Origin: Escherichia phage BYEP02
Length of the DNA stretch: 64,000 bases
Reading direction: 5' to 3' (one strand)
Sequence record: OR757454.1
Under the pieces are notes generated by a model. That model was not told where the DNA came from. It did not search any database and saw nothing but the letters and a program-made list of their open reading frames with translations. A program made the translations under genes and the position numbers. Every line of letters begins with the position of its first letter. The first letter of the stretch is position 1. Below are positions 344 to 62,377 of this stretch, piece by piece.

Positions 344-631
344 ATGATTCTTTATGCTAAAGTATCATCCATTGAAAATGGATATAAATATGATCAAGAA
401 GCAGTTAAAGCCTTGATTGATGATTATGGCATTTTAACATGTTTTGAAGTTGAAAAGGTTTATGTTGACCGTTCATCTTCTCAAGTTAAATTAGTGAAGG
501 AAGACCGTAAATTTAATACAGTAAATTTTGATTTCTTTATTGAAACAGAAAAAGGTCCTCTTGAATATGATATTTTCAAGAATCCTTTGGGTCTTGAATG
601 CATCGTAAATATGTATTATCATAAATGGTAA
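344..631 (+). CDS. hypothetical protein (95 aa)
   Basis: ATG 344 just after upstream stop; ORF to TAA 629-631. Confidence 0.5.
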   Translation: MILYAKVSSIENGYKYDQEAVKALIDDYGILTCFEVEKVYVDRSSSQVKLVKEDRKFNTVNFDFFIETEKGPLEYDIFKNPLGLECIVNMYYHKW

Positions 632-782
632 ATATGCTTTAAGAATTATTTGTTATTATTAACTCATATCGCACTGATTAATACCCTCTATCATCAAGGG
701 TTCTTTAAATATGCTTTAAGAATTATTTGTTATTATTAACTCATACCGCACTGATTAATACCCTCTATCATCAAGGGTTCTT
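629..782. repeat. 77-bp tandem duplication (629-705 / 706-782), 1 mismatch, intergenic
   Basis: Two adjacent near-identical 77-nt units read directly. Confidence 0.9.
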
Positions 783-818
783 GTTTGAGAGCCTTTGTTA
801 ATAATTGGGAATCATATT

Positions 819-1427
819 ATGGATACTAAATTAGCTGAAATTTTTGAAGGAAAACATCCAAATTTTAGTACAGGAAAGCTGAAAGATAAAATAATAAAAG
901 AAAATATTTTTCCATATGAGTGTGCAATTTGTAAAATTTCAAAATGGCAAAATAAGCATATTGTTCTGCAATTAGACCATATTGACGGAAATAACAAAAA
1001 TCATCTTAAATCAAATTTAAGATTATTATGTCCAAATTGCCATTCGCAAACTGATACTTTTGCTGGTAAAAATATTAAAAATAATAAAAAGCGTTATAAT
1101 GTTAGTGATGAAGAAATTTTAAACGCATTATTAAATTCTGCTACTATATCATCTGCAATTACTTCATTAGGTTTAAGTAAAGGCGGAAACTATAAAAGAT
1201 TCATTAAAATTGCTAATGATAATAAATTATATCATTTACTGGTAAATATTAATGAAAACATTTTAACTGATGAAATTTACGAAGAATTAGTTAAAATTGA
1301 TTATTCTAAATTTGGATGGGTTAGTAAAGCTGCTAAAATAATAGGTATAAGCCCACAAAAAGCTAGAAAATGGATAGAACGAAAGTGTCCAGAATTGATA
1401 GAACAATCTTTTTCACGTAATAAATAA
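819..1427 (+). CDS. HNH-family homing-type endonuclease
   Basis: HNH core in translation (LDHIDGNNKNH...LRLLCPNCH); C-terminal helix-rich segment; lies immediately 5' of tRNA cluster. Confidence 0.7.
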   Translation: MDTKLAEIFEGKHPNFSTGKLKDKIIKENIFPYECAICKISKWQNKHIVLQLDHIDGNNKNHLKSNLRLLCPNCHSQTDTFAGKNIKNNKKRYNVSDEEILNALLNSATISSAITSLGLSKGGNYKRFIKIANDNKLYHLLVNINENILTDEIYEELVKIDYSKFGWVSKAAKIIGISPQKARKWIERKCPELIEQSFSRNK

Positions 1428-1433
1428 TATAGA

Positions 1434-1520
1434 GCGAGAATGGTCAAATTGGTAAAGGCACAGCACTTAAAATGCTGCGGAATGATTTCCTTGTGGGTTC
1501 GAGTCCCACTTCTCGCACCA
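1434..1520 (+). tRNA. tRNA-Leu (anticodon TAA), long variable arm, CCA encoded
   Basis: Acceptor gcgagaa/ttctcgc, anticodon loop ctTAAaa, T-arm gggttcgagtccc. Confidence 0.85.
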
Positions 1521-1525
1521 AATTT

Positions 1526-1599
1526 GCGGATATCGTATAATGGTATTACCTCAGACTTCCAATCTGATGATGTGAGTTCGATTCTCATTATCCGCTCCA
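1526..1599 (+). tRNA. tRNA-Gly (anticodon TCC), CCA encoded
   Basis: Acceptor gcggata/tatccgc, anticodon loop ctTCCaa. Confidence 0.85.
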
Positions 1600-1752
1600 A
1601 TTTAATTTACTCCGTGTAGCTCAGTTTGGTAGAGCGTCTGCTTTGGGAGCAGAATGTCGCAGGTTCAAATCCTGCAATTTAATTTACTCCGTGTAGCTCA
1701 GTTTGGTAGAGCGCCTGATTTGGGATCAGGAGGTCCAAGGTTCAAATCCTTG
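1599..1752. repeat. 77-bp tandem unit pair (1599-1675 / 1676-1752) over tRNA-Pro; 9 differences, all stem changes compensatory
   Basis: 5' 38 nt identical, 3' half differs at 9 positions that keep anticodon-stem and T-stem pairing. Confidence 0.85.
1610..1675 (+). pseudogene. tRNA-Pro-like partial copy (anticodon TGG) lacking a pairing 3' acceptor strand
   Basis: D-arm, anticodon arm tctgc-tttggga-gcaga and T-arm present; T-stem followed directly by next unit. Confidence 0.6.
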
Positions 1753-1760
1753 TATGGAGA
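1687..1760 (+). tRNA. tRNA-Pro (anticodon TGG), no encoded CCA
   Basis: Acceptor ctccgtg/tatggag (two G-U pairs), anticodon loop ttTGGga. Confidence 0.85.
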
Positions 1761-1762
1761 CT

Positions 1763-1852
1763 GGAGGCGTGGCAGAGTGGTTTAATGCACCGGTCTTGAA
1801 AACCGGCAGTCGCTCCGGCGACTCATAGGTTCAAATCCTATCGCCTCCGCCA
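1763..1852 (+). tRNA. tRNA-Ser (anticodon TGA), class II long variable arm
   Basis: Acceptor ggaggcg/cgcctcc, anticodon loop ctTGAaa. Confidence 0.85.
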
Positions 1853-1962
1853 GTTTTGCTGATTTAGCTCAGTAGGTAGAGCACAGTCGCTCCGGCGACT
1901 CATAGGTTCAAATCCTATCGCCTCCGCCAGTTTTTGCTGATTTAGCTCAGTAGGTAGAGCAC
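1808..1962. repeat. 77/78-bp tandem duplication (1808-1884 / 1885-1962) across the Ser-Thr junction, one 1-nt indel
   Basis: 3' part of tRNA-Ser plus spacer plus 5' part of tRNA-Thr repeated. Confidence 0.9.
1858..1929 (+). pseudogene. chimeric tRNA-like element: tRNA-Thr 5' half fused to tRNA-Ser 3' half
   Basis: Thr acceptor/D-arm (gctgatttagctcag...) followed by Ser variable arm/T-arm/acceptor at the duplication junction. Confidence 0.7.
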
Positions 1963-60369: not shown

Positions 60370-60375
60370 ATTCAA

Positions 60376-60399
60376 GGACTCCTTCGGGAGTCCTTTTTT
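60376..60399 (+). terminator. intrinsic terminator, UUCG tetraloop with T-tract
   Basis: ggactccttcgggagtcc followed by tttttt. Confidence 0.7.
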
Positions 60400-60409
60400 C
60401 ATTTAAATG

Positions 60410-60439
60410 GTTTACTTTCCAAAATGAGTATGGTATAAT
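60410..60439 (+). promoter_or_regulatory. T4 early-type promoter (GTTTAC, 18 nt, TATAAT)
   Basis: Consensus motifs. Confidence 0.55.
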
Positions 60440-60465
60440 AGAATTATCTTATAGAGGAGAGCACT

Positions 60466-60672
60466 ATGTTAAATCGCTGGATTAAACCAAATGAAGATTT
60501 AGATATTATCATTTCACGACATGTAATGAAGAAATATGAACTACAGCCATGGTCTACAGAAGTTGTTGTGCATTCATTTATGATGTACGCAGATGGTTCT
60601 GTCGAATTTAATGCAGAGATTCGATATGATTATGGCGAAAAGCAAGTCGAATTCAAGAGAGGCTTTTTGTAA
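60466..60672 (+). CDS. hypothetical protein (68 aa)
   Basis: ATG with GAGGAGAG RBS. Confidence 0.45.
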   Translation: MLNRWIKPNEDLDIIISRHVMKKYELQPWSTEVVVHSFMMYADGSVEFNAEIRYDYGEKQVEFKRGFL

Positions 60673-61004
60673 TGTTTATCTTTAATTGGTTTAAAAGTTT
60701 CTTTACGGATTTTTTCTCTACAACTCCCGGAGAAGGTGTAGTTCCTATTTCAAATGACTACCTCTCTTTAACTGTAGTTGAATATGTTTATATGGGAGAT
60801 GGAACAGTAGAAGCAGTTACTATGACTTATGAAGAAGCCCAAGAATATTATAAAAATCCTTGGCGCTGGTCAGTACCTACTACATCATCTAATACACAGT
60901 CTAGTTCTGATTCATATGATACAAATGTCCCTGTTCATGTATGGGCAGGTGATTCATGCGGAAGTTCTTGTGATTCTAGTTGTTCATCTACATCTTGCGA
61001 TTGA
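60672..61004 (+). CDS. hypothetical protein with Cys/Ser-rich C-terminal tail
   Basis: Ends [18 protein letters not shown]. Confidence 0.5.
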
Positions 61005-61013
61005 GGAAAATTA

Positions 61014-61498
61014 TGGAAGCGATTTTGTTTGAAATGTATATTAGCAGTAATAGCATGTCGTTTGCTAAAGATGTTCCAATTACTGTAGCCGTAGTGATTG
61101 ATAAGGGTTATTGTAACCCTATGTATCTCGTAGAAAATTTCGTTTCAATGCCAGTTCCAGAAGATGTTGAAATAAAACTTAAAAAGATCGGAATTATTGA
61201 AACTGTGCCAAATAGTCCGTTTAGAGCAATTGAAGCATTTACTAAATCCGAATACATTAATGTTAGCGCAGAACAATATAATGGTAATCCTTTATCTTTT
61301 TATTCGTACGATTCAGTATATGACTGGAAAATAAATGAAGGAAATAAATTTATAATTGCGAGTGAAGATGCTTTATCATACTTTATTTATTATGTATGGA
61401 ATAATTTAAAACCAAATTTGCTAAAAATTCATGAATTTGACGATGCTCCTACTATTGTTTTAGGTAAAATAAATGAAAGTTCTGAAGAAGATTCTTGA
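61014..61498 (+). CDS. hypothetical protein (161 aa)
   Basis: ATG with GAGGAAAA RBS. Confidence 0.5.
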
Positions 61499-61676
61499 AT
61501 GGCTCAATAGACCAAACTCAATGTATATTGATGATGGCTGGGTTGAACAAGCAAATAAAGAAATGCAGAACGAATCAGAAGAGTGGATGAAATCTATGAT
61601 TAAAGCTGAGCAAGAAAAGAAATTAGAGCGCTCAGCTCTTAAATTAATGAGAGATATTTACGGTGATAAATCATGA
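61473..61676 (+). CDS. hypothetical protein (67 aa)
   Basis: ORF overlapping upstream 3' end. Confidence 0.45.
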
Positions 61677-61837
61677 GCAAAGATATGACGTTAGAAGAGG
61701 CCAAAGCAAAAGCAAATGAAGCAATGGATTTGCTTCTTAAAATTGGTAGTAAAATGATGGAAGAAAATGAGAAATACATTCAGGAAAACAAAATTCCTGA
61801 CGGTCCATTAGTAGGCAAAAGGAAATCACATGATTGA
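61673..61837 (+). CDS. hypothetical protein (54 aa)
   Basis: ATGA overlap; not in supplied ORF track. Confidence 0.4.
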
Positions 61838-62377
61838 AGTAGCAAAATTATATTCAATAGAATTTATGTCTAAAGAAGGTAAATCAGTAAATACACTTGA
61901 TAAAAAGTGCTCATTAATTATTCCTATTATTCAATAGAATTTATGTCCAAAGAAGGTAAATCAGTAAATACACTTGATAAAAATTGCTCGTTAATTATTC
62001 CTTTAGCAGAAAATCCGGATATTTTAATTAAAGATATAAAAGAAAGAAAATATCCAGAAAATGTTATTCTAATTATAAAGCATACTGAAGATATTTTGCA
62101 GAATACTGATTCACCATTTTCTTCTTCTGAAGCTTTAACTATTAAAGGCTATAAAAGAGCTCATGAATATGGTCTTTTTGACCTGTTTGAAGACGATAAA
62201 GTTAAATTAGCGAGTCAACCTTTTAAAAGTAAAACATTCATTATTGAAGATATTAAAGATATAAATGCATTTGTTAGGATGGTCTGGGCTCATTTTGATG
62301 TTGGACTACGCTGGAGAATGTCCGAAGAAGAAAGAAAGATTGCTGAAGCTAATCGTCATTTTGGTTTTTATCGCTAG
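61830..62377 (+). CDS. hypothetical protein, frameshifted by a 77-bp duplication
   Basis: 156 aa after removing 77 nt. Confidence 0.5.
61849..62002. repeat. 77-bp tandem duplication (about 61849-61925 / 61926-62002), 3-4 mismatches
   Basis: Read directly. Confidence 0.85.

Follow-up and report, generated by a model that had tools for sequence, protein, structure and literature searches.

Abutting 77-nucleotide repeats in the Escherichia phage BYEP02 record as probable untrimmed assembly overlaps at haplotype switches

How could a T4-like phage carry a short direct repeat inside its DNA polymerase, helicase and clamp-loader genes and still be a phage? The question is raised by a 64,000-nucleotide (nt) stretch of the Escherichia phage BYEP02 record (OR757454.1), hereafter the window, in which a segment of usually 77 nt is followed directly by a second copy at 34 places, here called joints. 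We consider it probable, at roughly 85%, that the window is a concatenation of 35 assembly pieces from a mixed-haplotype sample, in which the 77-nt overlaps of a de Bruijn graph with k = 77 were kept, and that it does not represent one molecule. A preliminary description of the window, made from its letters alone, had likewise held that the repeats are not biology; their fixed length, their absence from the closest relative and, at two of the joints, from 568 related records, and the restoration of open reading frames (ORFs) on removal of one copy all agree with that view.

The window corresponds to the early-gene part of a T4-like phage (Tequatrovirus) genome, in which the order is tRNA cluster, nrdD, 46, 45, 44, 43, 42, 41, dmd, 61, dam, modA. 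The best database match, which has the same order, is Escherichia phage slur03 (LN881728) together with its twin slur08 (LN881733), both Tequatrovirus from cattle slurry in the UK. Identity to slur03 is 98.9% over window positions 1-24000, with the query broken into 16 alignment pieces, and no other database phage exceeds ~96% across the region. Slur03 and slur08 are two of eight T4-like phages that were isolated from one UK cattle-slurry sample and sequenced together; they were assembled with SPAdes 3.1, followed by read-mapping correction (PMC4698387).

To inventory the repeats, we ran Tandem Repeats Finder (TRF) on the window and compared the window with itself at all offsets from 10 to 400, accepting a site when one unit was at least 85% identical. 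Between positions 629 and 62002, TRF returned 32 two-copy arrays, 30 with a period of 77 and two with a period of 81, and the scan likewise found offset 77 at 30 sites and offset 81 at two. No other period from 15 to 400 was detected by the scan, which gave a few trivial sites at offsets 10-14; this lack of other periods serves as an internal control for chance. Global alignment to slur03 added joint 19 (29901-30086), which both TRF and the author of the preliminary description had missed. In total, the window has 34 repeats made of two abutting copies: the period is 77 at 31 of them and 81 at two, and at the last a copy of 109 nt faces a copy of 77 nt. At every joint, the copies abut directly, with an offset equal to the copy length and zero nt in between. 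The copies are exact at 10 joints; at the remaining 24, they are set apart by changes at 1-8 positions or by an insertion or deletion (indel).

These counts refine the preliminary description. Its repeats are real, but they number 34 rather than about 30; its offset of 77 at every site applies to 31 joints and gives way to 81 nt at 3163 and 24130 and to 109/77 nt at 29901; and its range of 0-9 differences between copies, correct in running from exact to variable, has a measured maximum of 8 substitutions, or an indel. The single site to which it assigned 78 nt through a 1-nt indel is indeed joint 1807, where the overlap on slur03 is 78 nt. The histogram of tandem periods that it proposed is dominated by 77, with 81 occurring twice and nothing else between 15 and 400. 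The joints are listed below with the extent of both copies, copy lengths, differences between copies, and the genes affected (protein lengths in amino acids, aa).

Joint 1, 629..782: 77+77 nt, 1 difference; stop codon of a 97-aa ORF and the following spacer, no ORF broken.
Joint 2, 1598..1751: 77+77 nt, 8 differences; end of tRNA-Gly and tRNA-Pro, with an intact tRNA-Pro called at 1687-1761.
Joint 3, 1807..1962: 77 nt, apart from a 1-nt indel in a T run that is T4 in copy 1 and T5 in copy 2, slur03 overlap 78; tRNA-Ser/tRNA-Thr.
Joint 4, 3163..3324: 81+81 nt, 3 differences; intergenic, with a hairpin; 5 nt past the copy, TAGT (4 nt) is deleted from the downstream piece.
Joint 5, 4104..4257: 77+77 nt, 4 differences; 91-aa ORF split into 41 and 76 aa.
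Joint 6, 6701..6854: 77+77 nt, exact; 120-aa ORF cut to 107 aa.
Joint 7, 7595..7748: 77+77 nt, 2 differences; nudix hydrolase (e.1), 151 aa, split into 101 and 60 aa.
Joint 8, 8459..8612: 77+77 nt, exact; 98-aa ORF split into 54 and 66 aa.
Joint 9, 10012..10165: 77+77 nt, 6 differences; 195-aa ORF cut to 89 aa.
Joint 10, 11245..11398: 77+77 nt, 3 differences; close to the 5' end of a 73-aa ORF.
Joint 11, 13428..13581: 77+77 nt, exact; vs/tk.4 boundary, ORFs of 113 and 155 aa both intact.
Joint 12, 15945..16098: 77+77 nt, exact; 128-aa ORF split into 44 and 106 aa.
Joint 13, 18163..18316: 77+77 nt, exact; 177-aa ORF cut to 131 aa.
Joint 14, 19663..19816: 77+77 nt, 3 differences; 337-aa ORF split into 100 and 254 aa.
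Joint 15, 22148..22301: 77+77 nt, 2 differences; 326-aa ORF split into 294 and 70 aa.
Joint 16, 24130..24291: 81+81 nt, 2 differences; in frame, 296-aa ORF extended to 323 aa (+27 aa).
Joint 17, 26930..27083: 77+77 nt, 2 differences; 3' end of a 350-aa ORF and spacer, ORF intact.
Joint 18, 29242..29395: 77+77 nt, exact; overlapping small ORFs of 69 and 57 aa, both intact.
Joint 19, 29901..30086: upstream copy 109 nt, as in slur03; downstream copy 77 nt, a 32-nt deletion allele; 3' end of pin (Lon protease inhibitor).
Joint 20, 30464..30617: 77+77 nt, 1 difference; gp49 (endonuclease VII), 157 aa, cut to 144 aa.
Joint 21, 31782..31935: 77+77 nt, 1 difference; nrdD, 605 aa, split into 411 and 209 aa.
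Joint 22, 33217..33370: 77+77 nt, 3 differences; 78-aa ORF cut to 70 aa.
Joint 23, 36895..37048: 77+77 nt, 4 differences; gene end and spacer, ORFs of 68 and 57 aa intact.
Joint 24, 40130..40283: 77+77 nt, 2 differences; gp46 (recombination nuclease subunit), 560 aa, split into 51 and 516 aa.
Joint 25, 42311..42464: 77+77 nt, 1 difference; rpbA, 129 aa, cut to 110 aa.
Joint 26, 42545..42698: 77+77 nt, exact; spacer and start of gene 45, 228-aa clamp ORF intact; 234 nt from joint 25.
Joint 27, 43693..43846: 77+77 nt, 2 differences; gp44 (clamp loader), 324 aa from the first start codon (annotated 319), cut to 133 aa.
Joint 28, 45928..46081: 77+77 nt, 1 difference; gp43 (DNA polymerase), 898 aa, split into 188 and 713 aa.
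Joint 29, 50029..50182: 77+77 nt, 7 differences; gp42 (dCMP hydroxymethylase), 246 aa, cut to 215 aa.
Joint 30, 53778..53931: 77+77 nt, 2 differences, both copies unlike slur03; gp41 (helicase), 475 aa, split into 393 and 108 aa.
Joint 31, 54290..54443: 77+77 nt, exact; 5' end of dmd (60 aa), leaving a 58-aa ORF.
Joint 32, 56275..56428: 77+77 nt, exact; boundary ahead of gene 61 (primase), ORFs of 54 and 342 aa intact.
Joint 33, 58981..59134: 77+77 nt, exact; 3' end of dam, 259-aa ORF intact.
Joint 34, 61851..62004: 77+77 nt, 4 differences; 5' end of a modA.3-like ORF, with a 156-aa ORF intact from copy 2.

The duplications are absent from relatives. Global alignment shows a single copy in slur03 at all 34 sites, which supplies the comparison with a close reference that the preliminary description had called for. 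Across 568 phage records that match window positions 53500-54520, neither of the two joints in that segment is duplicated in any record (568/568); three alignment pieces are needed to cover it, with a span of 867 nt in these records versus 1021 nt in the window. Nor did the window's own sequence turn up in other collections: look-ups of three junction-spanning proteins by exact match, a joint pattern of 40 nt searched in viral, metagenome, and genome contigs, and megablast of 15700-18500 against plasmids and E. coli genomes all failed to locate it.

Coding sequence is split or truncated at about 22 of the 34 joints. About ten others lie on gene boundaries or spacers, with the neighboring ORFs on both sides intact, and two fall inside the tRNA cluster, where tRNA calling still gives all 10 tRNAs. 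When either copy is removed at every joint, full-length frames return for gp43 (898 aa), gp41 (475 aa), gp46 (560 aa), nrdD (605 aa), gp42 (246 aa), gp49 (157 aa), dmd (60 aa), and gp44 (324 aa from the first start codon). ORF calls thereby confirm, for the genes it named, the earlier claim that removing one copy restores full-length frames. Its companion claim, that each intragenic copy causes a frameshift, holds for the 77-nt copies and is slightly overstated, as the 81-nt joint at 24130 is in frame. T4 genetics has established that the combined loss of polymerase, helicase, clamp loader, dCMP hydroxymethylase, gp46, and gp49 is incompatible with a viable phage.

Next to the constant length, the joints share a second property, which is a change of haplotype. 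We cut the window at the joints, obtaining 35 pieces of 210-4101 nt, and compared each to slur03. At 30 of the 34 joints, copy 2 matches slur03 at 100%. Of the 24 joints with unlike copies, 20 have the departure from slur03 in copy 1 alone, one in copy 2 alone, and three in both; by our own arithmetic, the imbalance of 20 to 1 has a two-sided p of ~2e-5 in a sign test. Zero differences to slur03 are found in the first 300 nt of 28 of the 35 pieces, and differences accumulate at the 3' ends; the four pieces with non-slur03 bases in their first 77 nt start at 3244, 30010, 40207, and 53855. Each joint is a haplotype switch, from a second haplotype upstream to slur03-type sequence downstream, and this strict one-way polarity had gone unremarked in the preliminary description.

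The alternation extends through the whole window. Perfect identity to slur03 holds over 25 stretches that are each 500 nt or longer and together make up 38,388 nt, the longest being 3,900 nt (examples are 46005-49904, 56352-59057, and 16022-18239). In the divergent patches, the best matches are other phages, at ~98.5% and nearer than slur03, and no single known genome fits. Among 21-mers centered on a variant, 393 of 665 (59%) are present in at least one of the comparator phages DCP2, HMD-9, and ESh16, and inside copy 1 the share is 38/72 (53%). As controls, random single substitutions gave 17/2000 (0.85%) and unmodified window 21-mers 1307/2000. The blocks alternate between at least two haplotypes, each built of natural alleles; the proposal that the upstream copies come from a second haplotype in a mixed population is thus borne out by 53-59% natural alleles versus 0.85% for random changes. 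The differences between copies comprise 50 transitions and 14 transversions (n = 64), are evenly distributed along the 77 nt, and involve A in 11/64 cases, T in 23/64, C in 16/64, and G in 14/64. Taken together, the occurrence of the variant 21-mers in the comparators and this mostly-transition, even, non-adenine spectrum rule out sequencing error, randomly planted mutations, and mutagenesis by a diversity-generating retroelement (DGR).

The window and slur03/slur08 thus have gene order and the 38,388 nt of perfect stretches in common, whereas slur03 lacks the duplications and the window differs by its divergent patches and by the loss of a 223-base-pair (bp) segment. This segment, which carries ORF43.1 (slur03 141317-141539), is absent from the window at 45385; ORF43.1 lies between regA and gene 43 in slur03 and HMD-9, and ESh16 is also without it. 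The loss is a natural gene-content difference of the second haplotype. Judging by the 38 kilobases (kb) of perfect identity, the sequence suggests a source sample or run that held a slur03-type phage and a second Tequatrovirus.

Several local features accompany the divergent patches. Copy 1 of joint 2 (1598-1674) holds a second allele of tRNA-Pro(UGG), cut short and with 8 substitutions relative to the slur03 allele (1675-1751). Joint 4 contains a terminator-like intergenic element, a G+C-rich hairpin with a T run after it, at 3210-3235 and again at 3291-3316; its two allelic forms, CCCCGACC and CCCCAGCC, are paired with GGTTGGGG, and both can still pair by way of G-U. Inside gene 42, directly upstream of joint 50029, positions 49953-49989 hold ~22 substitutions in 37 nt versus slur03, a very dense cluster, more like the replacement of a short segment than like divergence by point changes. 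Short tandem repeats at 6434-6467 (8 nt x 4.1), 23908-23950 (21 nt x 2.1), and 25859-25900 (22 nt x 1.9) look genuine and unrelated to the 77-nt joints; the first two lie within indel-rich patches highly divergent from slur03.

What sets the length of 77 nt? When projected on slur03, the overlap is 77 unless the adjoining uninterrupted variant run has a net indel, which is the case at four joints:

Joint 24130: the upstream run 23792-24210 contains -2, -7, +2, and +3, for a net of -4; slur03 overlap 81.
Joint 3163: the 4-nt deletion 5 nt past the copy, in the downstream piece, gives -4; slur03 overlap 81.
Joint 1807: the T-run deletion within copy 1 gives -1; slur03 overlap 78.
Joint 29901: the deletion within copy 2 gives -32; slur03 overlap 109.

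The 223-nt deletion at 45385, by comparison, is separated from both neighboring joints by at least 77 identical nt and shifts no overlap. The dependence of the overlaps on nearby indels, together with the inertness of this large deletion, means that the 77 nt are counted in piece coordinates, not by homology. The count runs from the nearest point where both haplotypes share a 77-mer.

Such a count is what assembly bookkeeping would produce. The usual largest k of a SPAdes-type assembly is 77, and neighboring edges or contigs overlap by exactly k. Moreover, with lengths down to 210 and 234 nt, the pieces resemble graph edges rather than filtered contigs. Identical 77-bp contig ends are a documented SPAdes signature (PMC9409062), and this signature, along with the constant length, supports the preliminary identification of 77 as a de Bruijn k-mer size and of the repeats as untrimmed overlaps. 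We infer a de Bruijn graph with k = 77, software of the SPAdes family, a mechanism of dead-end tips and jumps, and a write-out in a single pass.

This could have worked as follows. Each piece would be written in full, including the 77 nt in common with the preceding piece, which would leave an abutting duplication. Haplotype A would be slur03/slur08 and haplotype B a natural relative identical to no database genome, and the sequence would have been written in a single left-to-right pass, either as a graph walk or by ordered stitching. A typical piece would start as A, or as sequence common to both haplotypes, drift into B, and end in B like a dead-end branch, halting after an uninterrupted variant run of 5-600 nt. 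The next piece would then enter the parallel A branch at the 77-mer of the same path offset, with the full edge being written. An equal-offset jump between branches would make the copies allelic, not identical, at 24 of the 34 joints, these being inexact because their copies come from different haplotypes, and it would give overlaps of 78, 81, or 109 nt on slur03 where the adjoining variant run holds an indel. When SPAdes clips a tip, it would map that tip onto the alternative edge at the same offset.

Some observations weigh against this explanation. True de Bruijn neighbors share an identical k-mer, yet only 10 of the 34 joints are exact, so an extra step would be needed, either the jump between parallel branches or a later read-based correction. 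A strand-symmetric assembler alone would give no single polarity, and we infer the left-to-right write-out from this. At the exact joints, the last visible variant lies 9-138 nt ahead of copy 1 and does not adjoin it; with the variants this far off, those vertices must come from branches invisible in the window. Finally, two 1-nt homopolymer indels, at 33141 (before joint 33217) and 30115 (after joint 29901), break the equal-offset rule, a misfit on the premise that the unseen parallel branch is identical to slur03. The two are natural variants: position 30115 (slur03 126662) has T4 versus T3 in slur03, and 33141 (slur03 129533) has A3 versus A4. At 30115, the three comparator phages side with the window, and slur03 is the outlier.

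Simpler versions of the assembly explanation were considered and rejected. Plain concatenation of bubble edges predicts exact copies, a variant adjoining each copy, and joints flanking every divergent run, none of which was seen. Later read polishing of exact duplicates could make the copies differ but would leave the one-way polarity and the 81-nt joints unexplained. Slur03 77-mers as seeds are ruled out by the four pieces with non-slur03 bases in their first 77 nt, and whole-contig coordinate arithmetic by the 223-nt deletion, which shifts no joint.

Among explanations outside an assembly graph, the closest is that a slur03 backbone was patched from left to right with de novo contigs of another phage and resumed 77 nt early each time through a constant coordinate error. 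The 38 kb at 100.0% identity to slur03, when other database phages reach at most ~96%, would fit such a backbone, as would the strictly one-directional change from divergent to slur03 sequence, and equal-length coordinate arithmetic would also yield the 81-nt joints. However, the piece 43770-46004 carries the 223-nt deletion and still has normal 77-nt joints, where a 223-nt shift would be expected at one of them; the pieces at 3244, 30010, 40207, and 53855 begin with non-slur03 bases in their first 77 nt; both copies are unlike slur03 at joint 53778; pieces of 210 and 234 nt are unlikely as pasted contigs; and nothing in this account provides a reason for the constant to be 77. We therefore regard patching as improbable. 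Deliberate duplication in silico, in which 77-nt stretches of a normal phage genome were copied and one copy mutated, had been listed as an option in the preliminary description and would account for the fixed length and the abutting copies, as well as for the absence of this sequence from the public collections searched. We disfavor it and rate it as still less probable than patching, because the joints coincide with haplotype switches and their overlaps depend on indels. The copy differences are natural T4-like alleles, of which 53% occur in the three comparators versus 0.85% for random changes, and they are continuous with the upstream divergent runs, with slur03 resuming exactly at the joint. 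The lengths of 81, 78, and 109 nt follow nearby natural indels, while copies planted by a simple procedure would be exact or carry random mutations, independent of haplotype structure.

Biological origins are far less probable again. Real tandem duplications, whether in defective genomes from a mixed infection or as scars of recombination-dependent replication restart, might be entertained since T4-like phages are known to recombine intensely in mixed infections and the joints do coincide with switches between two natural haplotypes. They would, however, require 31 independent events at exactly 77 nt, the default k of an assembler, and the breakage of gp43, gp41, gp44, gp42, gp46, and gp49 in one genome; the 568 related records lack either duplication checked at 53500-54520, and 77 nt measured as a path offset rather than by homology is a property of bookkeeping, not of molecules. 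A specific form, equally remote, is templated restart, in which the strand would switch to a co-infecting T4-like genome and recopy a fixed 77 nt, with the non-viable genomes being packaged; if this were true, the match of 77 to the assembler k would be a coincidence. Least probable of all is a DGR with template and variable repeats, or another targeted hypermutation. Each site does resemble one in being a near-identical pair of ~80 nt with one variable copy. Against this, the changes are not adenine-specific (11/64 at A) and are mostly transitions (50/64), a spectrum that rules out DGR-type mutagenesis; the abutting copies disrupt genes and do not diversify them; the variable alleles pre-exist in other phages; and there is no reverse transcriptase in the slur03 annotation of the homologous region.

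The nearest published parallel to untrimmed k = 77 overlaps is the SPAdes contig-end overlap, in which identical 77-bp (or 55- or 127-bp) sequences form the two ends of contigs whose genomes are circular or circularly permuted (PMC9409062). There, as in the window, the repeat equals k (77), is purely computational, and its junction genes are restored by removal of a copy. In contrast, that repeat occurs once per contig and is exact, whereas the window has 34 internal abutting joints in 64 kb, 24 of them inexact. Our literature search for internal k-length duplications yielded the contig-end case only. Inter-strain chimeric contigs likewise alternate between haplotypes and are broken where these diverge, but ordinary chimeric contigs switch seamlessly in shared sequence, while the window leaves a 77-nt duplication, always of the same polarity. 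Natural tandem duplications of T4 are kilobase-scale, have variable end points, are unstable, and were selected in special crosses. They are head-to-tail repeats in a T4-type genome, as in the window; however, they are large, variable in length, and viable, whereas those in the window measure 77 nt, or 81 nt at two joints, and knock out many essential genes together.

Altogether, the finding is a matter of data hygiene, not of phage biology, and serves as a quality-control warning on the record. Gene calls, protein clusters, and searches for pseudogenes or frameshifts made on this sequence will be wrong at about 22 genes. As a chimera of at least two phages, it should be kept out of phylogenies and recombination analyses and not be treated as a genome. 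Other records can readily be screened for the signature: many abutting repeats of one common k length, with one copy equal to a reference and the other carrying the alleles of a relative.

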